DNA of 64,000 nucleotides from Promethearchaeia archaeon (GCA_029856045.1 JAHQWG010000016.1:64001-128000); one strand, 5' to 3'. Counted from the stretch's first letter, positions 21,326 to 37,900 are shown. The notes: generated from the sequence alone by a model not told the origin. Numbers and translations are program-made.

Positions 21326-23809
21326 TTGGATATAATAGAAAATCAGAAAATTAGAATTCTTCTCGATATAAACGATGAAATTTCTTCTCAAAAAATTGAA
21401 ATAAGAGATGGAAATAAATATATTCCTGTTATCGGGAGTTCAGAATCGTTGGGTACTTTACTCTTCATATTTAAAAATTGCTTATATTCTAAGCCGTTGA
21501 TACTCAAAAAAAAGTCTGAAAGTAATTTAATCTTAAATTATGAAGATTCTATATTATCAATCCTTTTAGAAATTACAATTGAAAATGATGATTTAATTCA
21601 TTTTAAATATACAATAAAATTTAATCATAAATTAAAATTAACAAAACTTATTTCAAATTATGATATATTATTAGGAAATAATCCAGATTATACTTGGGTT
21701 CCTCATATTCGTCCAAAAGAAAATTATGTTATGGCAGATCATATTTTTCGCTCTCCTGCTGTAATATATAATAAAGGGAAATATTCTTTTTCATTAATTC
21801 CAGATTTAGATATCCTTGCTAAAAATAGACATTTCCAGACTATATTAGATTTAAATTTAAAGAATAAAGAATATACGGACTTTCCTCAACTATATTTTGG
21901 CTTCGGAAATTATAAAGCCGTTGAACATATTCTATTTCGTCACAATCCAAAGAAACATATGAAAATAAAAGCGGATTCAAATTTAATTTTTGGATACTAT
22001 GTGAAATTATTTAATGACTCACCTATTAATGATGTTTTAGCATATATTAATTCATTTTTATGGGAGAAATATGGAAAAAAAAGATTATATGCTGATTGTA
22101 AACCACAAGTATTATCATATGACACCTTTGTTGAGGAAGGTTTTAAAGCAATTTTTAAACGCCATAATTATTGGGGAAATTTTCAAATTGATAATATAGA
22201 ATGCGGAGGTGTTTTTCTTAGATCTTGGATGGGCTCCAAAAAAAAGCCACTTAAATATATAAAACCAGAAAAATTTGAAAAATATAAAAAAACAAGTTCA
22301 ATAGAATTATCTGGTCAAAGTAAACTTATCAATAGAATAATTTCAAGGTTTTCAAATAGTCCCTTTTGGATTAAAAGATTTGATAATTTCACGCGTCATC
22401 ATGCAATTATTACAAGAAACGCAGAGATACGAAATAATGCTTGGTTTTTAAATGTTCGGACTGGTTATGGTTTTAGATATTTTGCGAAATTATGGAATGA
22501 TCAATTTCTTAAAGATAAGGGAAATAGAACATTAAATACGGTATTAAATCTTCCTCGAATTAGAGGAGTATTTCCAAGTGTTATTTTACCAGAGAAAGAA
22601 AACGCAGTAAATTTTTCTACAATAAATGGGTTAAAAGCCTTTATCTTCACTGATGATTTTCACATAGTTGATATTTGTCTAGCTATTTACTGGGCAATCA
22701 AATTTTTTGAAGATTTTGGTGAAGTTAATGGAATTAAAGAAAAATGCAAGGAACTTTTTGATCTAATAGAAGAAGTTCAATTAGATAATGGTGCAATCCC
22801 CACATACATAGGTTTCAAAGAGGATAATAAGACACCGATTATTAGAGATACATTAATAAATTCGGCAAGTACAGGGGCACCATTGATGTTTCTAACAGAA
22901 TATTATAAAATTTCTAGAGATAAAAGAATCATTCCAATTGCTGAAAAATGTGCAAAATATATTCAAACTGAAATTATTCCTCAAGATAAATGGCATGATT
23001 ATGAACCTTTCTTTAGTTGCACACATTTACCTTTTGATATATATGATGATTTTACAAAATCTCATGTCATAAATACTTTGTCAATATATTGGAGCGCAGA
23101 AGGATTAAAAGAATTATATAAAATCACTAAGAACAAGGATTATTTAATATTAGGAGAAAGAGTTTTATCCGTTCTATCATTATTTCAACAAGTATGGGAC
23201 ATTCCTTACATCAGTTATAATACATTTGGAGGTTTTGGAGTGCAAAATGCAGATGCTGAATTGAGTGATGCGAGACAAGGTCTCTTTGTCCGGACGTATA
23301 TGGAGTATTATTTAGAAACAGGAAAAAAAGAATATATGGAAAGAGGAATCGCGACATTAAGAGCTTGTTTTGCTTTAATGCTTTTAAGAGAACTTAAAGA
23401 ACAATGTCCAGGTAACTTAAAAGGAATCGAAACGCTTGATGGTATTGATAGAGGATGTATCTGTGAAAATTATGGCCATTCAGGAAATGATCTACGAATT
23501 CCTGGATATATAATGTTTGATTGGGGAGTAGGTACATCTGCTTCAGCTTCTGCATATATAAAAAAACACTTTGGTGATTTATTCATTGATTTTAAAGAAA
23601 ATATTGCATGGGGGATTGATGGATTAATCGTGAGAACATTTGAATACAAGGATGATAAAATTTTCATAAAATTTGATAAAATTGAAGATAAAAAAGATAT
23701 TCTTGTAAAAGCGAGGGATCCTCCAAAAGAAAAACTAGAAATTTTTATAAATGACAAATCACTTGGGTTAAGAAGTAAAAAAGATTTAGAAGAAGGGTTC
23801 ATATTTTAA
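21326..23809 (+). CDS. Large hypothetical protein, probable six-hairpin (alpha/alpha)-barrel glycosidase-like
   Basis: Recurrent helix-pair motifs (EYYKISRDKRII, ELYKITKNKDYL, EYYLETGKKEYMERG) typical of alpha/alpha toroids. Confidence 0.5.
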   Translation: MDIIENQKIRILLDINDEISSQKIEIRDGNKYIPVIGSSESLGTLLFIFKNCLYSKPLILKKKSESNLILNYEDSILSILLEITIENDDLIHFKYTIKFNHKLKLTKLISNYDILLGNNPDYTWVPHIRPKENYVMADHIFRSPAVIYNKGKYSFSLIPDLDILAKNRHFQTILDLNLKNKEYTDFPQLYFGFGNYKAVEHILFRHNPKKHMKIKADSNLIFGYYVKLFNDSPINDVLAYINSFLWEKYGKKRLYADCKPQVLSYDTFVEEGFKAIFKRHNYWGNFQIDNIECGGVFLRSWMGSKKKPLKYIKPEKFEKYKKTSSIELSGQSKLINRIISRFSNSPFWIKRFDNFTRHHAIITRNAEIRNNAWFLNVRTGYGFRYFAKLWNDQFLKDKGNRTLNTVLNLPRIRGVFPSVILPEKENAVNFSTINGLKAFIFTDDFHIVDICLAIYWAIKFFEDFGEVNGIKEKCKELFDLIEEVQLDNGAIPTYIGFKEDNKTPIIRDTLINSASTGAPLMFLTEYYKISRDKRIIPIAEKCAKYIQTEIIPQDKWHDYEPFFSCTHLPFDIYDDFTKSHVINTLSIYWSAEGLKELYKITKNKDYLILGERVLSVLSLFQQVWDIPYISYNTFGGFGVQNADAELSDARQGLFVRTYMEYYLETGKKEYMERGIATLRACFALMLLRELKEQCPGNLKGIETLDGIDRGCICENYGHSGNDLRIPGYIMFDWGVGTSASASAYIKKHFGDLFIDFKENIAWGIDGLIVRTFEYKDDKIFIKFDKIEDKKDILVKARDPPKEKLEIFINDKSLGLRSKKDLEEGFIF

Positions 23810-23871
23810 TAAAATTTAAATAATTCATCAATTAATTGTAATATATTTCTTATAATCTTTAATGGATTTTT

Positions 23872-25053
23872 ATGTTTGATGTAGTAATTTCGGGAGCTGG
23901 TCCATCTGGTTCTAAATGTGCAGAAATTTTAGCTAAAAATGGTTTTAAGGTTGCATTAATTGAAAAAGATACTAATTGGCGAAAACCTTGTGGAGGTGGT
24001 GTAAGTGCGAGGATTTTTAAATATTTTCCTCAGTTGAGAAAATACAATATACCAAAAAAGAAAGGTATTGTTATGTTTTCCTCAAAATATTATAAATTGG
24101 AAAATAGATGGGAAGATCTTAAAGATTACTCAATTGTAATGGATCGATTGGAATTGGATAATTTAATCAGAGATGTTGCAGTTGATGCGGGAGTAGAACT
24201 TTTTGATAAGAATATTTCATTTGATTATGTAATTAAAAATCAAAAAAAAATTGGAATTAGGACAAAGACACCTTCAGGTGTTAATGAATATTTAGGGAAA
24301 ATAATTATTGTGGCCGATGGAATGAGTTCTAAATTGGCAATAAAATCCGGATTGAGAGAACGATGGAAAACTGAACAACTTGGTATAGCAAAATGTGCTA
24401 TTTTGGAAGGGGAGAATTCTTTAGATTCAAGTTCTATTTATATTTTCTTTCGACCTTATAAAGGATACGGATGGATATTTCCTATAGATGAACACCGTTT
24501 TAATATTGGATGTGGAACATTTGAAGAAGATAATTTAAGCTATAATTTAAATGAAATTTACAAGGAGTTTATAAATAATCCAAATATTAAAAATCTTTTA
24601 CCAAAATCGAATTATAAACAAATATGGATGGGATCTTATCCCTTACCAAGTCTAGGAGTATTAGAAAAAAGTTTATTTGGAGAAAATATAATGCTTATTG
24701 GAGATGCTGCAGGATTTGTATCCCCCATAAGTGGGGAAGGAATACATGCAAGTATAGTATCAGGAGATATAGCTGCTGAAACTGCAATTTATGCTTTAGA
24801 AAAAGAAGATGTGTCAGAAAAGACGTTAAAAAAATATAAATTCCATCCAAAAATTAAAAAAATAATTCGAAATTTCAAATTAAAACATTCAATGGCAAAT
24901 TTCTTTTTTGAAAATAGGGGTCAAAATCTTAATACCGTATTTAAAATAGCTGAGAAAGAGATATCATTTAAACAAGAAGTTATAAATATATTTTTATACA
25001 ACACTACTCCTCCAAAGGAATTCTTTCAAAGAATAAAAAACACGATTTCTTAA
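23872..25053 (+). CDS. Geranylgeranyl reductase family flavoprotein
   Basis: GAGPSG, KPCGGG, ADG, GYGWIFP, GDAAG..SPISGEGI. Confidence 0.9.
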   Translation: MFDVVISGAGPSGSKCAEILAKNGFKVALIEKDTNWRKPCGGGVSARIFKYFPQLRKYNIPKKKGIVMFSSKYYKLENRWEDLKDYSIVMDRLELDNLIRDVAVDAGVELFDKNISFDYVIKNQKKIGIRTKTPSGVNEYLGKIIIVADGMSSKLAIKSGLRERWKTEQLGIAKCAILEGENSLDSSSIYIFFRPYKGYGWIFPIDEHRFNIGCGTFEEDNLSYNLNEIYKEFINNPNIKNLLPKSNYKQIWMGSYPLPSLGVLEKSLFGENIMLIGDAAGFVSPISGEGIHASIVSGDIAAETAIYALEKEDVSEKTLKKYKFHPKIKKIIRNFKLKHSMANFFFENRGQNLNTVFKIAEKEISFKQEVINIFLYNTTPPKEFFQRIKNTIS

Positions 25054-25088
25054 AAATTAATTATAAGTTATTGATAAAAAGAATTTGA

Positions 25089-25111
25089 ATGGACTTGACG
25101 GGATTCGAACC
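25089..25111 (-). repeat. Degenerate copy of tRNA-Ala 3' end (att-like site 2)
   Basis: atggacttgacgggattcgaacc vs atggacctgacgggaatcgaacc at 30063-30085 (2 mismatches). Confidence 0.8.
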
Positions 25112-25114
25112 AAA

Positions 25115-25135
25115 GCTATGTCGTCACGGCATAGT
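25115..25135. other. 21-bp imperfect palindrome next to att-like site 2
   Basis: GCTATGTCGT-C-ACGGCATAGT (10-1-10). Confidence 0.7.
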
Positions 25136-25269
25136 ATTTTTCTTCAAATGAGAAAAATTCATATATAAAAGCTAATTCAAAAGTAATAGAAATAATCAAC
25201 CGAAATAAGGAAAACTCATTTCTTAATATCAGTTAAAATTTCATAGAATAAAAAAAATCTCAAAATAGT

Positions 25270-26949
25270 CTATAAGTTAATTTTATTCATCATATCATCT
25301 GGTATAATGATATACAATGGCCACTTTTTTAAAATCCCTTTTGGGACTTTCCCACTTCCTACGTTTTTTAAAACTAAATCACGTGATAAAACAAAATCTA
25401 TGGGTTTTTCATTTATAACTTCAAGCTCTAATGAGTTATTATTCAATAGGTTATTGATATTTGAATTTAATGGGCATTTCATAATCAACATTCGAAGCAC
25501 CCCTAAATCCATTGATTTATCTTCATTAGATACAAACAATGAAAACTTCCATGGTTTAGAATTAGAATAACTTTTATATAATACCAAATAGTTTAAAGAA
25601 TATTCCATATTTTTTTTTATACAATCTAATAGTTTTTTAGGGTTTAAAATAAAGAAATTTGGTAATTTAAAATAATATCCAGCTAATATTTTAAATTTGC
25701 TTGGTATAGTTAATTTTGGAGATAATTTTAGAGGGTATTTTATTATAAATCCCGAACGGATAATATCTCCACTGATTTGAGGAACCCCTTCTTGTTTTTT
25801 TATAGTGATCATATCTCCTAAATCAATATTAACTAATGGGTTTTTATCATCATAGCGAGAAACAAGTAACTTACCAAATTTATTTTTAGATTGGGTAAGT
25901 AAAGAACGGGAATTATTATATTCTAAAACGGGAATAGTTAATGGAAATACATACATCTTATTTTCTCTTGATATTGTGAAGTCTCCATTTGGGAGACTCG
26001 ATGCAAATGGTCCAATTTCTGATGCAACATAAAGGTTCGTGAACTTTTCCTTTCCTCTCTCCCATTGCATAAAACTCCTAATTAAATTCCACTGATTTTC
26101 AGAAAGATTCGATGTACTAAAAATAATTATTGCTTTTGATAAATGGACAGATAATAAATTCCGAATCTTCAATGCCGCTTTCTCTATATTATATTTATTT
26201 ATAATTTTTCTAATCTTATTTAAAACCTTGTTTTGGATTTCCTTATCGTCCCTTTGAAATTCAGTCTTTTTAAATATGCTAATAGAAGATTTTAACCGTT
26301 CAATATTATTCCATTTGAGGATGGTCAAAGCTGGGGCGGAGATCACAGAGATTTTAGGAATAGATAAGATTTTCGCAATTGTATCTATTTGAATAGAATG
26401 TTTATACTCATCTATTAAATATGAGTTAGGTTGGATAATAGAAAGCATGAGACGTTGTGAAAACTCAGAAGAATATAGCGAGACATACTTCAATCCATTT
26501 TTTTCATTTAATCCATCAAAACTCATTCGAGAAGGAATGAAAATAACCACAGATCCTTCTTTTGTTAGCCTGCTTGATTCAAATATTGCTTGCATCCCAG
26601 GTCCCCAAATTTTATATATTAATTGAGGGGACATATAAAACCACTTGAGATCTGAAACCCTACTGCTTGTCGTACCAGATGTATGGCATAATATGGGTAA
26701 TTTTAACCCTACTTTTGATTCAAAAAACGAATGTAAATCCAATGAAAACTCTCTCGATTTTATTTTCTCGACCTTAATACGTCGTAAAAGATATAAAACT
26801 TTATCAAGACCAGAAAGCCTAAGGGAGAGTTCCTCATATTCTTCTCTTGAATTAATATCTAACCAAGCTTTCCAATCCATCTTTTTATAATCTGATAGCT
26901 TTCTTTTAAATACACTCTGGAGTTTTGGATCAAAATCATATTTTAACAT
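25270..26949 (-). CDS. Divergent adenylate-forming (ANL superfamily; GH3/LuxE/PaaK-like) protein
   Basis: P-loop-like HTSGTTS, YVASEIG and IDLGD motifs. Confidence 0.6.
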   Translation of the reverse strand: MLKYDFDPKLQSVFKRKLSDYKKMDWKAWLDINSREEYEELSLRLSGLDKVLYLLRRIKVEKIKSREFSLDLHSFFESKVGLKLPILCHTSGTTSSRVSDLKWFYMSPQLIYKIWGPGMQAIFESSRLTKEGSVVIFIPSRMSFDGLNEKNGLKYVSLYSSEFSQRLMLSIIQPNSYLIDEYKHSIQIDTIAKILSIPKISVISAPALTILKWNNIERLKSSISIFKKTEFQRDDKEIQNKVLNKIRKIINKYNIEKAALKIRNLLSVHLSKAIIIFSTSNLSENQWNLIRSFMQWERGKEKFTNLYVASEIGPFASSLPNGDFTISRENKMYVFPLTIPVLEYNNSRSLLTQSKNKFGKLLVSRYDDKNPLVNIDLGDMITIKKQEGVPQISGDIIRSGFIIKYPLKLSPKLTIPSKFKILAGYYFKLPNFFILNPKKLLDCIKKNMEYSLNYLVLYKSYSNSKPWKFSLFVSNEDKSMDLGVLRMLIMKCPLNSNINNLLNNNSLELEVINEKPIDFVLSRDLVLKNVGSGKVPKGILKKWPLYIIIPDDMMNKINL

Positions 26950-26987
26950 AATAAAATAGTAGTAAGAGTAGTTTTAAAATAAAGTGA

Positions 26988-27129
26988 TTAATATTTTTTT
27001 GTATAGGGGATGTTCTGTGCAAGCCATTTAAAGCTTTCTTTCAAACCTATCCCAGTTTTAGCAGAGACCATATCATATCTAGCTTTTATTCCATATTTTC
27101 TAGGATCATATAGTTTTGAGTTTTCCTTT
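26988..27129 (-). pseudogene. C-terminal fragment of an Arf-like small GTPase
   Basis: Manual translation ...YDMVSAKTGIGLKESFKWLAQNIPYTKKY* (G5 SAK motif and terminal helix); no G1-G4 motifs upstream. Confidence 0.65.
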
Positions 27130-27386
27130 AGATTAAATCAAGGATTTTAATCAATATAAAAAAAAGAGAGCCAAAAATAACTAAATACAAATAATTAAAG
27201 TCATAATATTGATTTTCTTTAAGCGATAATGAAATAATTATATTAAAGAAAAATAAAAAAAGATATTTTTTTTGGATCTACTAAAATGGGGGATTCGATC
27301 CCTTTTTTTCAAAAAAAACAAACAGTATTAAATTTAAAATAGTCCAACCCTATTTTCATATTCTAATAATACTTGAAAAATTTTCA

Positions 27387-27405
27387 ATGGACCTGACGGG
27401 AATCG
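27387..27405 (-). repeat. Exact 19-bp copy of tRNA-Ala 3' end (att-like site 1)
   Basis: atggacctgacgggaatcg is identical to 30063-30081. Confidence 0.9.
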
Positions 27406-27412
27406 TTTAAAA

Positions 27413-27433
27413 GTGATATCACTGTGATATCAC
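27413..27433. other. 21-bp palindrome GTGATATCAC-T-GTGATATCAC (left copy)
   Basis: Identical to 30036-30056 (24-bp exact match including the preceding AAA). Confidence 0.9.
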
Positions 27434-27637
27434 CAAAATGTATTTTTTCCAGATTTTTAATTTAAACTGGAATATTTACTTTCCTCATTCAATTTCGTCA
27501 ATTGAGTAAGAAAATATTAGATTATCTTAGTGATTAATTGAGAAAAAGCAAGATATATTTAGTAAGAACTCACATTTCTTCTATGATTTAATACTATTTG
27601 TAGTTAAGTAAATTTTTGCTATCTTTATATCATTATT

Positions 27638-27920
27638 TTTACACGACTTCTCGGGATAAAGCCAAGAACACTTCTTCAACATTTCGACCTGTTTTTGCAG
27701 AGCATTAATAATATCCAAGCATTTATACTTTATTGCAAACAATAATGCATCTTCTCTTTTAACTCCTCTCCCGCTTTCGATGTCTATCTTATTTCCAATT
27801 AGTAAAAGGGGTAAATTTATTAGCAAATTAGGGTGTTGTTCCAAAATTATTTTTAAATTATTTTCACCTTCCCTTAATGATCTCTCACTCAAGATGTCAT
27901 ATACAAAAATTCCTCCATTT
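27638..27920 (-). pseudogene. Rab-like small GTPase pseudogene (5'-truncated, frameshifted)
   Basis: GGIFVYDI and LLIGNKID (G4) in one frame; CSAKTGRNVEEVFLALSREVV* (G5) in a shifted frame. Confidence 0.8.
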
Positions 27921-28093
27921 CTTTAGGATTTAAACGATCCCAAGATTAAACTAATTGTTTTATTAATCAACAAATTTAATTAAACTAATTTTATTCTTTT
28001 TAAAAAAATAAAATATATAGAAAAAGTAATAGGTTAGCAATTATTATTTATATAAGTAATAAAAAATAATTTTCAATATTTTCTCCATTTAAA

Positions 28094-28231
28094 ATGTCTG
28101 ATAAAGATTTAGAAACTCTTATATTCAAAATCGCACTTGATAATGCATTAAATTATAGGGGAAAAACAAGAGAAAAAAATATACTTTCAAAATTATTGGG
28201 ATTGATACAAGAAAAAAATAAATCAATTTAA
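28094..28231 (+). pseudogene. N-terminal fragment resembling archaeal glutamyl-tRNA synthetase
   Basis: MSDKDLETLIFKIALDNALNYRGKTREKNILSKLLG resembles the archaeal GluRS N-terminus (K.AL.NA....GK.....V..K.LG); stops after 45 aa. Confidence 0.55.
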
Positions 28232-28349
28232 TCTTTGTTTAAAATGATAATACTCTCGGTACCTTGTTTTCACGGGAAGACCCTTCACTTCTCAAAATTT
28301 ATAATTTATAATTATTAAATTAAAAATAATAGATCTCTTAATATTTTAT

Positions 28350-28892
28350 ATGAATCAATCTTCAAAAACTGAACCTAAACAGAGTTTACTTAAAAATAAA
28401 TCTTTTATCGCTGAAACAATCTATCTCATTATTATTATCATAATCATGGCATTAATTTTTCTTGATTTTATTGATACGGGATTTTTCCTCGGTCCATTAC
28501 GCTTTTCCCATTGGATGGGAATAATAGGAACCTTTTTTATCATGGTTTTTGCACCATTCTTTTATGTCATGAAACGTCGTTATCCCAAACGATATAAAAT
28601 TTTGTTGAATATCCATGTATTTGGATTTACTACTTCTTTTCTACTTGTGTCCATCCATTTTGCCGGACAACTGAGTCGTCCATTACAATTTTATCCGGAT
28701 CTAGGAGCTGGATTAGCACTATATATTATTGTAGCCGTCCTTGTTGGCACGGGGTATTTGTTTAGATATCATCTCTTTAAATCGAAAAGTGGAAAAATTC
28801 GCCCTCATTTTAGCAGGTGGTTACACGTTAGTCTGATAAGTGGATTATACATTGTAATGATCATTCACGTTGTATTAAACTTTCCAATTTAA
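28350..28892 (+). CDS. Five-TM membrane protein with intramembrane His residues (possible heme b / ferric reductase-like)
   Basis: Hydrophobic helices containing SHWMG, NIHVF, SIHFA, WLHVS and IIHVV. Confidence 0.55.
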   Translation: MNQSSKTEPKQSLLKNKSFIAETIYLIIIIIIMALIFLDFIDTGFFLGPLRFSHWMGIIGTFFIMVFAPFFYVMKRRYPKRYKILLNIHVFGFTTSFLLVSIHFAGQLSRPLQFYPDLGAGLALYIIVAVLVGTGYLFRYHLFKSKSGKIRPHFSRWLHVSLISGLYIVMIIHVVLNFPI

Positions 28893-29039
28893 TTCAATAT
28901 CTAAAAAAACATTAAGAAATAGGATCTCCCCATAGAATTTTATTTTATTTTTTCTTTAGACAACGGGTGCAACCACAAAATGCAGCTCGTAAAAAACAAA
29001 AGCAAAAATCAAAGAAATGCTAAAATCCAAGGTTCAAAT

Positions 29040-29642
29040 TTAGACCCTTAGCGAGCCACGGAACCCCCTAACGCCATAGAAAGAGGGCGCACTGTTATGA
29101 AACACGAAGACATGACCGTAGCGACGATCAACAAAGATGGCGCCGCCTAGTTTTCTAATATCAGAAGGCGTTTTCACCCAGCTCGACGTCTTCGTATCGA
29201 AATTTCCAAGTTTCTGCAACTCTCGATATTGTCCTTCCGTTAAAAGCTCAATGCCCATGGCAGCTGCCATATCAATAGCGTTACCTTCTGGATGCACCCC
29301 TCGCTTTTCCTTCGCCTCCTGCCCTTCACGGTCGTAACAAACATTTCTGCGGCCTTTAGGACTTTCCGCTGAACAATCATAAAAAATGTATTCGCCCGTC
29401 TTTTTATCATGATCAAAAACATCTGGTTCACCGCCAGTTCTTTCCATTTCATTGAGTGACCACAGTTTTTCAGTATTAGCTTCCAGCTTTGCTTGTACTT
29501 TAGCCCATTCAAGAACTTTATGGCGGTTCATGTTTTTCTCAAAACGGGCTTTCAATGCTCTGAGTAGTTCTTCACGTTGTTCTGGTGACAACTCTTTTTT
29601 GAATGCAGTAAATGATGGCTTGCGCATAATCATAGTATTCAT
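29040..29642 (-). CDS. DUF4256 family protein (bacterial-like)
   Basis: LKARFEKNMNRH, MERTGGEPDV, DCSAESPKGRR, DTKTSSW, RGFRGSLRV; visibly GC-richer than the flanks. Confidence 0.85.
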   Translation of the reverse strand: MNTMIMRKPSFTAFKKELSPEQREELLRALKARFEKNMNRHKVLEWAKVQAKLEANTEKLWSLNEMERTGGEPDVFDHDKKTGEYIFYDCSAESPKGRRNVCYDREGQEAKEKRGVHPEGNAIDMAAAMGIELLTEGQYRELQKLGNFDTKTSSWVKTPSDIRKLGGAIFVDRRYGHVFVFHNSAPSFYGVRGFRGSLRV

Positions 29643-30035
29643 CCTGAGTTTATAAAATTATCTAGGCAGGGAAGGACATTTTTTGTCCTAATTGCGGTGA
29701 AAAATTAGAAAACAATCGATTACTAAGATGGAACAATAATTGAACAAATATATCAACCAATTAAAGAATTATTTTAAATATGTTATTAATTATGGTGTTC
29801 CAAGAGACCGAAAAATCAGACCAAGTTGTCTAGTTTTCGAAAATACTTTTTATTAATTTGCACGAATAATTCAAGTGGAGCTTACTTTTTTCTACAAACC
29901 CATTTTGATTAAGGATAAAAGAGGTAACTAATATCAAACTGATATTAAGGTTGCTTGAATTTTAAATCTGGACAAAAATATTACCGAGCTTTCATATTAA
30001 GTGTAGGAATGATTTTTTCCAATTTTTGGAATAAA

Positions 30036-30056
30036 GTGATATCACTGTGATATCAC
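30036..30056. other. 21-bp palindrome (right copy), just downstream of the tRNA-Ala 3' end
   Basis: GTGATATCACTGTGATATCAC. Confidence 0.9.
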
Positions 30057-30063
30057 AAAAAGA

Positions 30064-30135
30064 TGGACCTGACGGGAATCGAACCCGTGACCTCTTGAAT
30101 GCGAATCAAGCGATCTTCCTCTGATCTACAGGCCC
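30064..30135 (-). tRNA. tRNA-Ala(CGC)
   Basis: Cloverleaf GGGCCTG...CAGGTCC-A with G3:U70, anticodon arm CTTGA-TT-CGC-AT-TCAAG, T-loop TTCGATT. Confidence 0.95.
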
Positions 30136-30360
30136 TTATTTTAGACAATTACTATGAGGAAATGAATTTCTACTAATTCTTTTTAAATTACTAAATAATA
30201 TTTTTAGATCTTCTTAATCGATAGCAACTTTTAATTTATATTTAATATTTAGAATCATCAAAAATAAATAATTTTGATGTATTCTGATTATATACATTTA
30301 TACATAAAAAAGAAAATTGCAAAACTTAACTAGTAATTGAATTAATTTGGCTAAAATATA

Positions 30361-32958
30361 ATGTTGGAGAAAAATAACTTCCCTAAACGATATAATTTTT
30401 CAGAAATCGAAAAAAAATGGATAAAATACTGGAAAAAAGAAAATATATATAAATTTGATTTAAATAAAGCAGGACAAATATTTTCGATTGATACACCCCC
30501 CGATTTTACAAGTGGGGATTTGCATATGGGACATATATTGAATCATTCATGGATTGATTTTGTAGCACGATTTCGAAGAATGCAAGGAATTAATGTTTAT
30601 TTTCCTCAAGGTTATGATTGCCATGGTCTTCCAACAGAATTAGCGGTCGCGGAAGAATTTAAAATAGATAAATATGATAGAGAAAATTTTCTTAAAAAGT
30701 GCATTGAATGGACAGAATATTGCATAAAACGAATGACTAGGCAATTTGATGAATTAGGATATTCTACAGATTGGAATTATATTTATAGAACAATGGATAA
30801 TACGTATAAAAAGCAAGTTCAAGAATCTCTTTTGGATTTTTATGAGAAAGGTTGGCTATATCGTGCTAAACATCCTACACATTATTGCATGAACTGTCAG
30901 ACTTCTGTCGCTAAAGCAGAAGTAGGATATATGGATGAAGAGGCAAAAATTTGGGAAGTTAAATTACCTTTAGCAAATTATCCTGAAGAATACATCACTA
31001 TTGCGACGACTAGACCAGAATATATTGAAGCATGTGTAGGCATCTTTGTTCATCCGAATGATGAAAGGCATTATGATTTAATAGGAACTCAGATAAGAAT
31101 CCCATTTTCAGAGAGAATTGTTCGTGTTGAAGCAGATAAAGAAGTGGATATGAATTTTGGAACTGGAATTGTATATTTATGTACATTTGGAGATGAGATG
31201 GATATACGATTGCAGATGAGATATAATCTTCCAATCGTACAAATTTTTACTAAAGATGGTCACATGAATGAAAACTCAAAATTTCAAGGTTTGACAATTC
31301 TTAAAGCTCGTGAAAAAATTTTAGAAGAATTAGATAAAAAGGGATTATTAGTAAGTGAGAAAGAATATCAACATCGAATAATAGTCCATACAGAAAGATC
31401 TTCCTGTAAGCAACCAATTGAATATCTCCCAATACCTCAATGGTTTATTAAAGTTAAGGATTTCACGAGAGATATTATAGAATCTGGAGAAAAAATGAAA
31501 TGGTTTCCGGAAAAACATAAACAACGACTAATTGATTGGTGCGAAAGTTTAGATTGGGATTGGGTCGTTTCTAGGCAGAGAGTATTTGGAACACCTATAC
31601 CATTTTGGTATTGTAATGATTGTGGGGAAATTTTTTCCGCAAAAAGAGAAGATTTGCCCGTTGATCCAGCAAAAGAAGAGTCGCCTGTAAAAGAATGCAC
31701 TAAATGTAAGAGTAAAGATATTATTGGTGAAAAGGACGTTTTAGACTGTTGGATTGACTCAAGCATCACACCTCTGGTTATATCAAAATGGAAAATTGAT
31801 AATGCTTTCTTTAATAAGACATATATGAAAGCCCAAGTTCATAGACCACAAGGTTATGAAATTATCAGAACATGGCTATTTTATACATTATTTCGCTGTA
31901 AAAAATTAACAGGGAAAGATCCATTTGATGAGGTTATGATTAATGGGATGGTTGCAGGCCCTGATGGAAGAAAAATGTCTAAAAGTTTTGGTAATGTTGT
32001 TTCTCCAGATGAAGTTTTGCCCCTATATGGAGCCGATGCACTAAGACAGTGGGCTGCAATGGGTTCATTAGGTGATGATTACCCGTTTGAATATTCGTGG
32101 ATTGAGAAAAATACCAAACAACCTGTTAGTAAAGATAAAATCGAAGATGATAAAAATAAATTACCTGAAGATAAATTCAAGAGAAAATATGAGAGAAGAT
32201 ACAATCAATTAATAGGGGCTTCTAAATTTCTAACAAAAATCTGGAATGCATATAGATTTTTATATTTAACTAATGAGAAAATTGATTTAAAAGAGATTGA
32301 CATAGATATAAATGAATTATCACCTATTGATAGCTATTTTTATAATAAATTTAATGAAGTTCTTGAATATATAACTAATTCTTTCGAAGGATATAATTGG
32401 CATGAAGGATTTGCAGCATTTCGCTCATTTTTTTGGTATGAAATATGTGATGATTACATTGAGGCAATAAAATATAAATTTTATTTAGAAGATGCAGCTA
32501 TAAAACAAAATGCATTAAAAGCCGTATTAAATCTGATGTATAAAATACTAAAGATTTTAGCAATAATAAGTCCTTTTATTTCAGAGGATATATATTCAAT
32601 TCTCTTTAAAAATTATATAAAACAGAAATCAATCCATCTTGAAAAATGGTCAGTTCCTTATCAAAGAATTCCAGAAAAATTCGCTGAACAAGGAAAATTT
32701 TGTTTAGAAATTATTAAAAATATTAGAATGGTTAAATCTTCAAATAAAATTCCATTGAATCAAGAATTAAATAAAGTTATATTAATTTTAGACATTAATA
32801 GAGTAAAAATGTTGGAAGCGTTACAAATCGATATAAAAAAAACAATTAGAATTAAAGAATTAATAGTAATTGATAAAGAGACACAGGAATCATTAGATAC
32901 ACCCGATATAGAAGAGAATATAGAAGATTTAGGGTTAAATATTTTAATTTTTAAATAA
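30361..32958 (+). CDS. valS: Valine--tRNA ligase
   Basis: IDTPP, HMGH, DCHGLPTE, ATTRPE, SRQR, QGYEIIRTW, KMSKS. Confidence 0.93.
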   Translation: MLEKNNFPKRYNFSEIEKKWIKYWKKENIYKFDLNKAGQIFSIDTPPDFTSGDLHMGHILNHSWIDFVARFRRMQGINVYFPQGYDCHGLPTELAVAEEFKIDKYDRENFLKKCIEWTEYCIKRMTRQFDELGYSTDWNYIYRTMDNTYKKQVQESLLDFYEKGWLYRAKHPTHYCMNCQTSVAKAEVGYMDEEAKIWEVKLPLANYPEEYITIATTRPEYIEACVGIFVHPNDERHYDLIGTQIRIPFSERIVRVEADKEVDMNFGTGIVYLCTFGDEMDIRLQMRYNLPIVQIFTKDGHMNENSKFQGLTILKAREKILEELDKKGLLVSEKEYQHRIIVHTERSSCKQPIEYLPIPQWFIKVKDFTRDIIESGEKMKWFPEKHKQRLIDWCESLDWDWVVSRQRVFGTPIPFWYCNDCGEIFSAKREDLPVDPAKEESPVKECTKCKSKDIIGEKDVLDCWIDSSITPLVISKWKIDNAFFNKTYMKAQVHRPQGYEIIRTWLFYTLFRCKKLTGKDPFDEVMINGMVAGPDGRKMSKSFGNVVSPDEVLPLYGADALRQWAAMGSLGDDYPFEYSWIEKNTKQPVSKDKIEDDKNKLPEDKFKRKYERRYNQLIGASKFLTKIWNAYRFLYLTNEKIDLKEIDIDINELSPIDSYFYNKFNEVLEYITNSFEGYNWHEGFAAFRSFFWYEICDDYIEAIKYKFYLEDAAIKQNALKAVLNLMYKILKILAIISPFISEDIYSILFKNYIKQKSIHLEKWSVPYQRIPEKFAEQGKFCLEIIKNIRMVKSSNKIPLNQELNKVILILDINRVKMLEALQIDIKKTIRIKELIVIDKETQESLDTPDIEENIEDLGLNILIFK

Positions 32959-32996
32959 CTTTCCATTTATTGGAGCAACTAATACTTCTTGTTAAA

Positions 32997-33878
32997 CTAT
33001 AGCTCGCCTTCAAGTTGAGAAATTATTTGCTTTTTCATTTCTTCAACGTTTGTTGAGAAGCCGAAAGTTTCAGCGAATTTTTGGTTCGTAGTTAACTCGT
33101 GAGTTCTTCCTTTTTTAATGGCGTTAATGAATTCATTATCTAATAACCATTTCACATGTTCGTAAGCGCCAGAACCACGTATTTTAATAAGTTTTGATTT
33201 CAGAATTGGTTGTTTTAAGGCAATAATAGTTAATGTTCGCATTATTCTTTGGGGAATAAGGCCACCAGCAGCAAACTTTGCAACTTTTTCAGTATATTCA
33301 GGTTTTATTTGCATACTATATTTATCTCCAATTTGAACGATTTCAATTGCAGTAGTTCTATCCAGAAACTCAAATGCGAGTTCATTGATTATATTTTTTA
33401 TTAAATCTTGCTTAATCTCTAATTTTGAAGAAAGTTCTTCAAGCCCAAGTGGACGACCTGCGACAAATAAAGCGGCTTCAATTTGATTTTTGTGAAAATC
33501 TAAATCAAGTCTTTCTTTTCTTTCTTCATCCGATAATTCTTGAATTTCTGGTTCAACTTTATTAATTTCCATTTCTATTAAGGATTCATCTATTGGTTTA
33601 ACTACTTCCTCTGTAGATTTATCCATTAATTCAACTTCATCTTCTCGTAAAGATTTATCTATTAATTCAATTTCATCTTCTTCTGTTGACTCATCTAATA
33701 ATTCAATTTTATCTTCTTCTAGAGATTCATCTATTAGTTTAACTTCTTCTTCTGTAGATTCATCTTTTAATTCAACTTCATCTTCTTCTAGAGATTCACC
33801 AATAGATTTATTTTCTAAATCTTGCTCTAATTCATTATTTTCATTATTTTCATTATTTTCTTGTTCCATGCACATCAA
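32997..33878 (-). CDS. scpB: SMC-Scp complex subunit ScpB with acidic repetitive N-terminus
   Basis: IEAALFVAGRPL, TLTIIALKQPI, IRG, TTNQKFAETFG. Confidence 0.9.
   Translation of the reverse strand: MMCMEQENNENNENNELEQDLENKSIGESLEEDEVELKDESTEEEVKLIDESLEEDKIELLDESTEEDEIELIDKSLREDEVELMDKSTEEVVKPIDESLIEMEINKVEPEIQELSDEERKERLDLDFHKNQIEAALFVAGRPLGLEELSSKLEIKQDLIKNIINELAFEFLDRTTAIEIVQIGDKYSMQIKPEYTEKVAKFAAGGLIPQRIMRTLTIIALKQPILKSKLIKIRGSGAYEHVKWLLDNEFINAIKKGRTHELTTNQKFAETFGFSTNVEEMKKQIISQLEGEL
33575..33800 (-). repeat. 11-12 aa acidic coding repeat, about 6 copies, in scpB
   Basis: ESLEEDEVELKD / ESTEEEVKLID / ESLEEDKIELLD / ESTEEDEIELID / KSLREDEVELMD / KSTEEVVKPID. Confidence 0.8.
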
Positions 33879-33910
33879 AATTTTTTTTTATTCTAATAAT
33901 TCTTTGTATA

Positions 33911-34900
33911 TTATTTAATTGTAATTGAAATATCTTCAAAATCATCTGCTTGAAATATATTTATTTTATTGGAAGTTCCTAAGAACATTAATGAAAGGAA
34001 CATCCTAACAAGAGCAAACTTACGGGAAATTGTTTCCTCTTGTTCATTTTTTATTAAATTTAAAAGTTTAAAAAAGGAGATATAATCAGTGTCATTAAGA
34101 TCTTGGGAAGCTTTAATTTTGTTATACCATCCATCGATCAATTCTTCAATCGTTTGGTCTTTTCCTGTAATATGTTTTAATAATTCTTTGGGTAATTTTG
34201 CTTTTGATTTTTTTAATTCTACCATTTGTTTTGCATCTTCTCTTCGTTCACGTGCGCGTCTTAATTTTTCTCGGTTTTGCATTGTTTCTAAAATAGCAGA
34301 TCTCATTGCAGAAAAGAGTTCTTCCCTAGTAGCGACTTTCTTTTTGGGTTGAATCGGTTGAGCAAATGCTTTTGGGATTGAACGTTTAGTTCGTTCCCTT
34401 AATTCCTCTAATTCTTGTTCCTGCTGTACTTTTTGTTCATGTTCAATGACATCCTTTATTTTTGTATGATGAATAGTTGCCGCACCTAAAATTGCCATTC
34501 CAGAAATTCTAAAATTAATAAAATCTTCTTTAAGCATCTTTTCAAAGAATTTATGAATTATCGGTGTGAAGTCTTGATTTAAAAATGTTGAATCCTTTAA
34601 TAATTCCGGATCCAAAAGTGAATTATATGGAGGTTTTTGCCAGAATTTTTTATCAGCTTCAATTTTTTTTTTCATTTCTTCTGTTATTTCTTTTAATAAT
34701 TCACCATCTTCTTCAAATTCTGCGATTAATTCTTCTTTAACTTCAATTTCCTTTTGGATTTCAGGTAATGGTTTTTCAATTGAATTTATTTGATCAATAT
34801 TTGATTTAGAAATATTTGGTGTTTCATCTTTAGGCTTTTTAGGGCATTTATGTTGAGATAGCCTTTTAAAGGTTTTTCCACAATAAGGGCATTTTGGCAT
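33911..34900 (-). CDS. scpA: Kleisin ScpA with N-terminal CxxC-x9-HxC zinc knuckle
   Basis: Lies between smc and scpB; kleisin N-domain FRISGMAILGAATIHHTK and C-terminal FLSLMFL...Q...FEDISI. Confidence 0.8.
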   Translation of the reverse strand: MPKCPYCGKTFKRLSQHKCPKKPKDETPNISKSNIDQINSIEKPLPEIQKEIEVKEELIAEFEEDGELLKEITEEMKKKIEADKKFWQKPPYNSLLDPELLKDSTFLNQDFTPIIHKFFEKMLKEDFINFRISGMAILGAATIHHTKIKDVIEHEQKVQQEQELEELRERTKRSIPKAFAQPIQPKKKVATREELFSAMRSAILETMQNREKLRRARERREDAKQMVELKKSKAKLPKELLKHITGKDQTIEELIDGWYNKIKASQDLNDTDYISFFKLLNLIKNEQEETISRKFALVRMFLSLMFLGTSNKINIFQADDFEDISITIK

Positions 34901-34922
34901 ATTTACGTTCTCCTTATTTTTT

Positions 34923-37900
34923 TTAAGTTTCCTCTAATTCCAATATTTGTTTAGCTTCTTTTTCTAAATCCACACTAAAAACATCTGTAATTCCACCTTG
35001 CATTGAAACACCGTATATTCTATCTGCATTTACAATGTTTTCTTCACGGTGACTAATAACTAAAAATTGAGCTTGTTTAGCGAATTCCTTAATAACCATC
35101 GAAACACGATGAACATTTGGGCCGTCTAAGGCCGCATCGATCTCATCTAAAATATAAAATGGAGCAGGATAAAATTCTTGAACGGCAAAGATGAAAGATA
35201 ATGCAACTAGAGTCTTTTCTCCGCCACTTAAAATTTCAAGTGAACTAATTTTTTTACCTCTTGGGCGAGCTTCTATGTCAATTCCTCCTTCAAAAGGTTT
35301 ATCTGGTCGCTCTAATATCATTTTAGCAGAGCCGCCTGGTGATAATTTTTGAAACACACTTGAAAATTGTCTATTAATCTCATGGTAAGCTTTCATGAAA
35401 TTTCTAGTTTTTTCCAATTCAATTTTATCAATAGAGTCAAGAATCGCTTTTCTTTCTCGTTGGATGGTTTGTCTTCTCATATCTATTTCATCAAATCGCT
35501 CTTTAACATCATCATATTGATCAATCGCTTTAAGATTTACTGGTTCAAGTTTCTTCTTAGCATTTTGCGTTTCTATGATATCATTTTGAAGTCCTTGTTC
35601 TGTAAGTTCTTCAGTTACTGGTGGAAGAGCTCCGTAATCTTTACCTCTTTCATAAAGTGTTTCAATCTGATCAGTCGTTATTATTTTTTTAGATTCAAGA
35701 TTATTTAATTTGGAATGTTCCATCGATAGATCCGCTTTTAATGAGGAAATAACATTTTGCATTTCTTTTTGTTTTTTCCAGGATTCATCTTTTTTAATCA
35801 CTATCTCGTCGATTTCTTTTTGTTTTTCTATTTTATCATTATTTACTTCAGTAAGAGTTTCATTAATTTTTTCTATATCTTTTTCAATCTGTTCAATGAG
35901 CTGATTAGAATTCTCAATTTCTTCTACCAAAATTTTAATTTGTTGTTCTCGTTCTTTATTTTTAGATAATTCGTTTAGATCTTTTTGTTGTTTCTGTAAT
36001 TTTTTGTTCATGTCTTTCAAGTATTTTTGAATTTCCTTCTGTTTATTGAATTCCTCATCTTTATGGTTTTTTAATTCATTAATTGTAATTTGTTCTTCAT
36101 CGATTTTCTTTTGAATTTCTTCTTGAGAAAGAGTTTGTTCCTCAATTTTTTTATTATTAGCATCGATTTTATTATTCGAGTCAACATTTTCAGTTTTTAA
36201 TTCTTCAATAGAATCTATGAGTCGCTGAATATTTTGTAGAGCTCTCAAATTATCAGTTATTAATTCTAGATTTTGATTTTCTACATCAATTTGTTTTTGT
36301 AATTCCGCTGTTTTTCCCCAGAATTTTTCTTTCTCTAATTTTAAATCGTTAATTTTGTTCTGATGTGTTTCTAATTCTTTTTTCCTTGTTTCAATGCTTT
36401 TATTTGTTGCAATAATTTCATTATTTTTTTCTTCAATCTCTATTTCAATAGACTTAATATTTTCCTCAATTTCTGTTATGTTTTCCAATAAATTTTGTAT
36501 GCCTTTGAGATCTTGTAAATTCTCTTGAATATTATCAAGTTCCTTCTGATTATTTTCAACCTTATCTTGAATCTCTTTCTTTATTGTCCAAAACTGTTTT
36601 TTCAGCTCTTTAATATTTTCTTGTTCTTTAATTAATTGTTCTTTCTCTTTGTTTTTCTCATCGATAAATTTATTTTTTTCAGTGGTCTCGTTTTCAAATT
36701 CTATAATTTTATTTTTTATTTCTTCCGATTGAGAAGAGAAATCATCTAATTTTCTTTTATCCTCTGATAATTTTTGATCGAATGATTCCTTTTTTGAATT
36801 AAAAACAGTTAGTTTTTGTTCATGATCATTCAATTCATTTAATTGGGAATTAATACTTTCAGAAATTTCTTCTAATTCTTTATAAAGATCTTGACTTTTT
36901 GATAATGTTAATTTTCTTAAAGCAAGATAAACATTTTCTAATATTTCCATTAAATCTTGGACGAAATCGTCAATATTGGAGGTTGATTCTTGGACAGCAA
37001 CGTCTGTAGATTCTTTTACGGATGTAAGTAATTGAGAAATTGAAGAGTCTGCATTTTCAATATATAAATTCAGAGTTTGAGTGAAAGAATTCAATGACCC
37101 ACGAATATTCTCATCAGATAATTCCTCCTTATTAATTTCTTCAATAATTTTCATCATTTCAACAATATCATAGATATAAGTTTTGAAATCTTCAGCAGAT
37201 GTTGAAATTGCTTCAAAATTTGATTCTTGAATTGCGCCTTTTATTGATTCAACAGAAATATGTATATTTTGGGTTAACATATTTAAAATTTGTAAAATTC
37301 CTGTTAAATTTTCTTTATTTTGATCATAATCTTCCTCAGAAACCCTAATTCGGTCTAAAAGAGTTTCTTTTTCCTTACTCAATTCATTTATTCTTTTGTT
37401 AATATTTTCTTTCTTTTTAGAGAGATTATTAAGATTAGAATTTGTTTCATTCAAATCCTCGGTAAGTGACTTTGTTTCTAAGTTAAGGTTTTTGATTTCT
37501 CGCTCAAAATTTTTTTGATTCTTTTGGAGAATTCTTATTTCAGTTTTAATGTTAGAGATTCTGGTATTATATTCAGTAATTTCAGATTCTGATGTATTTT
37601 TTTTCATTTGAATTAATTCATAATTCTGTTCATTCTTTTTTAAAGTATTTTCTTCTTGTAGAAGTTGTTTCTTTAAATCTGCTATATTCTTAATATAACT
37701 ATCTTTCTTTTTCATTAATTCTATTATTCTTACTTGAACTTCTTTTCCCTCACTTAATCTCTTGAATTCTTCTTCGATTTCAATTTTCTTTTTATTGAGT
37801 GTATTGATTTGGTTTTTATTCATTTTTATCTCTGTATTTAAAGATGAAAAAGATGAATGTAAATCAGAGATGATTTTATTAATATCACTTCTCTGGTTCT

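Follow-up and report, generated by a model that had tools for sequence, protein, structure and literature searches.

In bacteria, units without an integrase of their own are known from streptococci, where families of integrative and conjugative elements (ICEs) and integrative and mobilizable elements (IMEs) form accretion arrays that include cis-mobilizable elements (CIMEs). Tandem insertions are also known for the family 2 casposons, whose terminal inverted repeats lie directly inside a direct repeat of a tRNA 3′ end. Genomic islands at the 3′ ends of tRNA and tmRNA genes, tandem islands included, are covered by the Islander definition (PMC4383910); Asgard examples have been described in Heimdallarchaeum, together with the site-specific integration of Asgard mobile genetic elements in general (PMC8813620). 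Other archaea show the integrase-less outcomes of suicidal integrases (PMC7253208, PMC8371274), and integron gene-cassette arrays have been reported in archaeal metagenome-assembled genomes (MAGs; PMC9668308). The present work deals with two small insertions, here called islets E1 and E2, that are stacked at the 3′ end of tRNA-Ala(CGC) in a stretch of 64,000 nucleotides from a Promethearchaeia archaeon (GCA_029856045.1, JAHQWG010000016.1:64001-128000; hereafter the window), and with the palindrome-bearing arms that border them. The best reading of the evidence is that these islets belong to a lineage-specific family of elements that target tRNA genes, as members that have decayed or are non-autonomous; such elements were found only in one Loki-type Asgard family among the genomes searched.

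Two stacked islets at tRNA-Ala(CGC)

The window comes from contig C27 of a MAG of 3.34 Mb and 29% GC (G000). This MAG represents a Loki-type Asgard archaeon, and the closest relatives of its proteins bear labels such as Promethearchaeota and Lokiarchaeota. Between a GGR-like gene and tRNA-Ala(CGC) lies an insert of 4,974 bp that is missing from three genomes of the same genus (G004, G001 and G002), in which the tRNA gene stands directly behind the GGR-like gene. In the near-complete G004, the sequences that correspond to positions 23660-25111 and 30063-35999 of the window are contiguous, with flanks of approximately 93% DNA identity. The absence of the insert from all three congeners implies that it is specific to the species of G000.

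The target of integration, tRNA-Ala(CGC), is intact (30064..30135, - strand; found by ARAGORN and as Rfam RF00005, 67.7 bits), carries a G3:U70 pair, and is the only feature that a scan with Rfam detected. Its last 19-23 nt form the proximal att core (30063-30085, + strand), and two further copies of this 3′ end lie in the same orientation: a middle core that is exact in 19/19 positions (27387..27405, +), and an outermost one of 23 nt that matches in 21/23, with mismatches at positions 7 and 16, and abuts the native flank (25089..25111, +). The 23-nt pattern gave 0 matches in 100 shuffles, and no other tRNA of G000 has such additional 3′-end fragments. These copies divide the insert into two units, the outer islet E1 of approximately 2.28 kb (25112..27386) and the inner islet E2 of approximately 2.66 kb (27406..30062). 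An intact tRNA with displaced 3′ fragments as direct repeats, together with an empty site in relatives, is what defines a tRNA-targeted island, and the cassettes that the original prediction had placed in a stack at one tRNA are borne out as a real insertion of two units; the palindromes, hairpins and tRNA copies that it had listed are likewise all where it had put them.

The outermost copy holds two bases that are not native, despite the native flank beside it, because G004, G001 and G002 carry an unmutated tRNA 3′ end at that place. One of the two mismatches sits in the acceptor strand (CAAGTCC), a variant that recurs in the core of another genome (G045:C9). An attP acquired in a host whose tRNA-Ala differed slightly would account for this, as might drift.

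Environmental sequence was consulted in the form of Logan contigs, an assembly type that drops rare variants, from four separate studies of marine sediment and salt marsh (2016-2024). Contigs from the four studies bridge all three junctions exactly as they stand in the assembly. One odd joint, found in X19, leads from 28076 back to 27246 through 15 foreign letters and does not lie at an att site. In several runs, contigs agree with the flank of the GGR-like gene as far as 25086, or with the tRNA from 30057 onward, before passing into other sequence; they probably come from related species with different content at this site.

Two other polymorphisms were seen nearby. Just upstream of the GGR-like gene, an open reading frame (ORF) of 827 aa (21326-23809; 21-29% GC, no family match) is the centre of a second presence/absence difference, in which the segment 21158-23659 is missing from G004 at a clean breakpoint and partly present in G001. 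In addition, tRNA-Ala(CGC) has no intron in G000 and G004, but in G001 and G002 an intron of approximately 28 nt interrupts its anticodon loop, so that this intron has been gained or lost within one genus.

Palindromes and arms of E1 and E2

Next to each displaced core stands a palindrome with two halves of ten and a single central nucleotide. The palindrome of E1 (PAL1, GCTATGTCGT-C-ACGGCATAGT, 25115..25135) pairs in 8/10 positions by Watson-Crick rules, both mismatches being G.T on the + strand. The palindrome of E2 (PAL2, GTGATATCAC-T-GTGATATCAC) occurs at both ends of the islet, the distal copy at 27413..27433 and the tRNA-proximal copy at 30036..30056, the latter 6-7 nt beyond the tRNA 3′ end. 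PAL1 and the distal PAL2 both begin exactly 25 nt from the discriminator position. The two copies of PAL2 are the only exact ones in G000, and with their flanks they match in 28/29 positions; each half is itself palindromic, and the site therefore doubles as a tandem repeat with 11-bp spacing. Variants of the PAL1 type are present at G000:C38:15716-15734, G041:C558 and G045:C82. Perfect palindromes of this 10-1-10 form number 23 in the 3.34 Mb of G000 (6.9e-6 per site), and those with at least 8/10 pairs occur at 1.7e-3 per site; the chance expectation for two palindromes at the same offset from two tRNA fragments is approximately 1e-8, and these genome frequencies rule out chance as the origin of their placement.

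Beyond each palindrome the arm continues with a hairpin: ATTTTTCT..AGAAAAAT at 25136-25158, TTCCAG..CTGGAA at 27447-27472, and TTCCAA-TTT-TTGGAA at 30017-30031. The rest of the E1 distal arm (25136..25221, +) consists of its hairpin and a degraded conserved block, with a fold z-score of -5.05, and the rest of the E2 distal arm (27434..27545, +) of its hairpin and the block ..TTACTTTCCTCATTCAATTTCGTCAATTGAG..ATATTAGATTAT... Folded as single strands of DNA, the arms give z-scores of -3.4 to -5.0. The distal arm was turned into a covariance model (R1), whose 136 positions comprise core, palindrome, TTCCA..TGGAA hairpin and a conserved block of approximately 60 nt; this model matches E1 at 25090-25221 with 94.8 bits and E2 at 27388-27523 with 147 bits. 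On the tRNA-proximal side of E2, the part of the arm outside PAL2 (29992..30035, -) holds its hairpin and part of the conserved block, and with cmsearch the model matches 29992-30056 (-) over model positions 26-110 (29.6 bits, E 3e-4). The arms of E2 are thus inverted copies just inside the direct repeats, the proximal one being shortened. When the ends of E2 are joined, the reconstructed attP reads hairpin, PAL2, AAAAAG, the 19-nt core, TTTAAAA, PAL2 and hairpin.

The tRNA-proximal end of E1 has no palindrome and carries instead, approximately 100 nt before the middle core, a GGGGGATTCGATCCC hairpin followed by a T-run (27279..27300, +), which looks like a terminator or a T-arm and belongs to a conserved junction module also present in four other genera. 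The exact core and identical palindromes of E2, as opposed to the two mismatches and the missing arm of E1, suggest that E1 is the older unit and that E2 entered the regenerated tRNA later.

A third islet and the arm family

The same architecture is found in a third islet, E3 (locus L162), at tRNA-Ala(GGC) on contig C38 of the same genome (G000:C38:13241-15775). At its near end, tRNA-Ala(GGC) is followed by T-CTTTTT and then by GTAATATCAC-T-GTGATATTAC, which is PAL2 with a compensatory G>A/C>T pair and unchanged spacing; at its far end, approximately 2.4 kb on, stand CTATGTCGTAACGACATAG, of the PAL1 type, GTTT, and a diverged tRNA 3′ fragment. E3, too, is missing from G004 and G001. The native tRNA-Ala(GGC) of G004 encodes CCA, where the tRNA of G000 has TCTTTTT, and on C38 the CCA and the native trailer stand behind the displaced tRNA copy. 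The insertion of E3 has thus removed the encoded CCA, so that tRNA-Ala(GGC) of G000 now relies on CCA addition. Judged from this loss and from the mismatches that the displaced copies show in E1 and E3, the junction would lie at the discriminator or within approximately 6 nt of it, either immediately after it or in the last few bases.

Pattern searches, and after them R1, were run on 135 genomes of one Loki-type family, spread over 13 genera. Full-length arms were found in 12/135 genomes and 5/13 genera; G000 has exactly three, besides the incomplete inverted arm on the tRNA-proximal side of E2, and five complete genomes, of which four belong to other families of the order, had none. The original prediction had proposed a scan for tRNA fragments with a palindrome at +25, and had held that a spacing that did not recur elsewhere, with cassettes fixed and syntenic in all relatives, would refute it. 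The arm does recur, at E3 and in 11 other genomes of five genera, with the dyad at the same position, which shows that the spacing is not peculiar to this locus.

The arms are approximately 140-165 nt long and share the motif AAAATnATATTTTTTCCA..TGGAAnAATTA and an AT-rich block, TTTCCTCnTTCAATnTTATCAnCTGAnAAA..TATATTAGATTATAT..AGATAAtTGAGGA. Their core is tRNA-Ala-like and often decayed, and in one arm it is the 3′ end of another tRNA. In a subgroup of genus g4 (L145, L146, L143 and L148), which has the dyad GGTACC-N5-GGTACC, the core (..CGTGAAACTGTCC..) is no recognisable tRNA end, and on this ground the arm family may also sit behind other kinds of target. The order typical of a proximal end (tRNA fragment, 6-7 nt, palindrome, hairpin) is repeated at G045:C82 and G093:C170. 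On the opposite side of the core, five loci in five genera have a further stretch of approximately 130 nt in common, in which a T-arm-like hairpin lies, so that the whole inter-cassette junction of approximately 300 nt is a conserved module. This hairpin (GGnGGTTCGAnnCC), followed by T6-7 and an A-run approximately 100 nt before the core, was seen in the window (27279-27300) and at L140, L141, L075 and L070; it could serve as a terminator or be left over from another tRNA-like site.

The dyad: one position, several types

Throughout the arm family the centre of the dyad falls on one alignment column. When 18 arms are aligned, 77% of the dyad cells pair, as against 37-42% when the partner column is slid, and changes on both sides affect 46 cells versus 17 in shuffles, a value that 0/500 shuffles reach. 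The TTCCA/TGGAA hairpin is conserved in sequence and hardly covaries. At least seven types of dyad can be told apart: GTGATATCAC twice, CTATGTCG.., GGTACC-N5-GGTACC, GGGGACAT-T-ATATCCCC, AACAACGTC-N5-GACGTCGTT, a TATATAC-type and a TGTGCTA-type. Three of the types (GTGATATCAC, GGTACC and GACGTC) consist of two copies of a short palindrome placed 11 bp, or one helical turn, apart.

Palindromes of the same type keep 81-90% identity from genus to genus, as against 40-73% in the adjacent block. When arms of different types are compared, the relation is reversed: the palindromes are 24-48% identical in 6/8 pairs (62% for G041 vs G093b), and the adjacent block 67-79% in 8/8; between E2 and E3 the palindrome matches in 9/21 positions and the block in 41/52. 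The original prediction had seen covariation between PAL1 and PAL2. Symmetry is indeed kept and many of the differences are compensatory, but this is not a gradual drift, the two palindromes being two of at least seven discrete types. Each type is retained in different genera and is exchanged independently of the arm around it. The high identity within a type, beside flanks that drift, favours sequence-specific recognition over a purely structural stem, and type-specific dimeric proteins that recognise sequence would produce such a pattern. The dyad does not encode the target, because at least five types occur on the same tRNA-Ala core.

The missing recombinase

Scans of all ORFs with Pfam, NCBIfam, PADLOC and PHROGs recognised no integrase gene inside the insert, as the original prediction had said of the insert, and the whole assembly yielded a single tyrosine recombinase (PF00589; contig C8, 318 aa), which is XerA-like and near neither of the two tRNA-Ala loci. 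A single match of like strength (E about 1e-39 to 1e-43) was obtained in 9/10 related genomes searched, the exception being G041 (83% complete), with a weaker match only, and for this reason the protein of G000 is taken to be XerA. PF16795 and PF01867 (Cas1) gave 0 matches in G000, and there is no serine recombinase. No dedicated recombinase is thus recognised in the islets or in the genome, from which it follows that the islets are either remnants that have lost their recombinase or non-autonomous cassettes that depended on a helper. They appear to be fixed now.

Sequences outside the genome were searched with several patterns. The exact PAL2 pattern found only unrelated bacterial or high-GC matches in viral and genome contigs, and the tRNA core gave four unrelated coding matches of 51-56% GC in viral contigs, where its E1 variant gave none. 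A looser junction pattern of core plus PAL2 retrieved the window's own sequence alone, on a 1.3-kb JGI contig; the stricter attP pattern (PAL2 half, core, PAL2 half) had 0 matches in metagenome contigs, and the junction module had none in phage and plasmid records.

Proposed recognition sites and competing explanations

The evidence leans somewhat toward the view that the palindromes are type-specific recognition sites of a recombination machinery that acts in trans or has since been lost. According to this proposal, two successive site-specific insertions would have taken place at the extreme 3′ end of tRNA-Ala(CGC), each element bringing its own tRNA-3′-like segment and the conserved arm next to it. 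E1 would have arrived first and decayed, and E2 would have followed at the regenerated tRNA, keeping both of its arms as inverted copies. The palindrome would most likely be bound by the arm-binding domain of an integrase or by a dimeric accessory factor.

Several observations weigh against such recognition sites. The original prediction had proposed to look for tyrosine integrases next to such sites, and neither an integrase nor any other recombinase was found in or beside the approximately 20 arms examined; conversely, the extra tyrosine recombinases of seven genomes (G106, G093, G119, G007, G041, G045 and G060) have no arms (best E 0.07) and no tRNAs alongside. Viral contigs, metagenome contigs, and phage and plasmid records contain no free attP or autonomous relative, and among the arms of the 12 genomes there is no autonomous relative with the same att and a cognate integrase, in bins that may miss extrachromosomal contigs. 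No candidate for a cognate DNA-binding protein was identified for any type of palindrome. The circular junctions for which a search had been proposed did not appear either: in the Logan contigs of the four studies there is no empty site, single cassette, excision or circle joint, although rare forms could be missed and contigs say little on rare excision. The two ends of E3 differ, with a PAL2-type palindrome on one side and a PAL1-type on the other, which means that the two arms need not carry the same site, unless E3 arose when a deletion fused two units. Finally, the T3-T6 that follow most palindromes on the tRNA-sense strand would suit a terminator hairpin equally well.

This last point leads to a different explanation, in which the palindromes are terminator or insulator hairpins, the proximal one stopping read-through from the tRNA into the islet and the distal one stopping outgoing transcripts, and owe their fixed position only to membership in a conserved arm. 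In most copies the T3-T6 come directly after the palindrome (only weak T-stretches are found at G041:C558, TTAC, and E3, GTTTGGG), the native trailers of the tRNA copies likewise carry oligo-T, the hairpins are stable (z-scores of -3.4 to -5), and compensatory change is expected of a purely structural stem. Archaeal termination, however, depends on oligo-T and needs no hairpin, loops of one nucleotide make poor hairpins, and it is hard to see what purpose terminators flanking the core would have in the circle. The discrete types are, moreover, better conserved across genera than the flanking arm, unlike a stem that only has to pair, and hairpins of this kind are an unlikely account of the palindromes. 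Alternatively, a recombinase may be encoded elsewhere, possibly the single XerA of the host, and the islets would then be cassettes like those of integrons or of integrative mobile elements exploiting Xer recombination (IMEX), each made of cargo and a module of approximately 300 nt. The diverse cargo, toxin-antitoxin pairs included, the lack of a recombinase in every cassette, the conservation of the junction module in five genera, and the presence of only a XerA-like recombinase in G000 would agree with this, as would the weak binding of Pyrococcus XerA to stem-looped att sites (reviewed in PMC8371274). On the other hand, the contigs of the four studies show no sign of present mobility, there is no IntI-like gene and no attI, the arms are unlike attC, and no dif-like site was identified in the core. 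Arms occur in only 12/135 genomes although XerA is general among the genomes searched, and the discrete conserved types argue for cognate partners and not for one general enzyme, all of which makes cassettes of this kind quite improbable.

The islets could also be remnants of SSV-type, or suicidal, integration, in which the attP lies inside the integrase ORF; the arm would then be the promoter and 5′ end of that gene, and the rest would have decayed. Tokens of this would be a conserved ATG just 5′ of the palindrome on the sense strand and a frame that stays open through palindrome and core in G041:C558, E3 and G043:C170, and tRNA-flanked elements without an integrase are a known outcome in archaea (PMC7253208, PMC8371274). 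Against it, PF16795 and PF00589 detect no integrase fragment in the islets or in G000 beyond XerA, no Int(C) stands beside any arm, and the shared frame follows automatically from an alignment without indels; most copies reach a stop within approximately 15 codons, and downstream of the core the frame lasts from approximately 11 codons (E3) to approximately 22 (E2). An origin of this type is very unlikely. Hardly credible, in turn, is a spread without any site-specific recombinase, through a homing-nuclease cut at the tRNA 3′ end and repair from a donor, or through plain homologous recombination that joins strains by way of the flanking genes and the conserved arms. Arms of 140-300 nt would support the exchange of cassettes within a species, but E1, E2 and E3 hold no nuclease gene, the displaced copies carry non-native variants, which is the opposite of simple donor-copy repair, and the precise junction repeated at the discriminator, together with the symmetric arms, suggests site-specific chemistry.

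Cargo of the islets

E1 carries a single ORF of 559 aa (25270-26949, -) without a match in Pfam, NCBIfam or PADLOC; its relatives are hypothetical proteins that make up a large family across the Asgard archaea (best identity 50%), and it is single-copy in G000. An Arf-like fragment considered at 26988-27137 was discarded, with no Pfam support at E up to 1. The cargo of E2 is a mosaic that comprises a 3′ fragment of a Ras-like gene (27581-27892, -; weak match, E 0.001), a membrane protein of 180 aa (28350-28892, +), a DUF4256 gene of 45% GC (29040-29642, -) and the truncated start of a zinc-ribbon ORF (about 29680-29760, +). E3 holds a gene of the DprA/Smf family (PF02481, E 2e-36) and a PRTase fragment recognised with Pfam. 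No ORF crosses either att site of E1 and E2, and none of the three islets has a nuclease gene.

In the family as a whole, an all-against-all BLASTP of the interiors found no shared gene, so that the cargo of the cassettes is mutually unrelated, and no conserved ORF follows the arm. The contents include AbrB/PIN-like and other toxin-antitoxin-like pairs, small GTPases, leucine-rich repeat proteins, DprA, transporters and membrane proteins, labels that come from a reading of the ORF sequences and were checked with Pfam only for the two genes of E3.

Within E2, the DUF4256 gene and the start of the zinc-ribbon ORF form a GC-rich module of 761 bp (28959-29719) with sharp ends. It is present at 85-96% identity in dozens of genomes of other genera and even of another family of the order, far above what background divergence would lead one to expect; there it has a different, mutually conserved context, and no arms lie beside it. 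This looks like the recent horizontal spread of a bacterial-type gene.

Comparison with known systems

A stack of insertions at a tRNA 3′ end is a known scar of serial site-specific integration. The islets resemble tRNA islands in the regenerated intact tRNA, the displaced 3′ fragments that form direct repeats, the empty sites of relatives and the stacking itself, and differ from them in that no unit has an integrase, the units measure only 2.3-2.7 kb, and the junction is placed at the extreme end of the tRNA. With the SSV-type elements (PMC7253208, PMC8371274) they share an archaeal host, a tRNA target and the condition of having been trapped without a working integrase after integration; no int(N) or int(C) borders them, and the only open frames across the core, in three relatives, are short. 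A casposon would likewise have terminal inverted repeats directly inside a direct repeat of a tRNA 3′ end, but here the genome has no Cas1, there is no polymerase gene, and the repeats, of 19-23 nt and unequal, are not a fixed duplication of 14-15 bp. Subterminal hairpins, a trait of IS200/IS605-type elements, are present, but the units are bounded by direct repeats of 19-23 nt that derive from the tRNA end.

Closer in organisation are the CIMEs, which are also att-bounded units without recombination genes, stacked at the end of a conserved gene and presumed to be mobilised by a related autonomous element. E2, with both arms, both cores and no recombination gene, has precisely this make-up. 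The differences are the archaeal host, an unrelated arm architecture, and the lack of a cognate autonomous element or integrase with the same arms in the 135 related genomes. Integrons, for their part, offer the parallel of an array of small units with unrelated cargo that includes toxin-antitoxin genes, a symmetric and variable palindromic module, and a recombinase outside the cassettes. In contrast to them, no tyrosine recombinase is found near either tRNA-Ala locus, IntI and attI are lacking, a GTTRRRY-type attC core is not present in the arms (by eye only), the anchor is a tRNA 3′ end, the module of approximately 140-300 nt has a tRNA-like core and a second hairpin of conserved sequence, and the palindromes can be sorted into discrete types, each of them conserved.

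A bolder proposal, tentative and in our judgement unlikely, is that Loki-type Asgard archaea own a cassette system in which small cargo circles with a module of approximately 300 nt are inserted serially at tRNA 3′ ends by a recombinase encoded elsewhere, either that of a helper or the XerA of the host. If true, it would be the archaeal functional counterpart of integrons or IMEX elements. In any case, gene packets of 2-3 kb enter at the tRNA without a visible integrase, and the arm, through its covariance model and at least seven palindrome types, is a searchable signature with which the missing recombinase can be sought in unbinned contigs and enrichment cultures. Should each palindrome type prove to be the address of a cognate protein, the types would mark out compatibility groups within a new family of elements.

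The conserved arm with its fixed, type-variable dyad is not described in the literature consulted on tRNA islands and archaeal elements. What sets this family apart from the systems discussed above is, among the genomes searched, the combination of a conserved scaffold restricted to one family, a dyad that can be swapped and whose distance from the junction is fixed, and units that never carry a recombinase.

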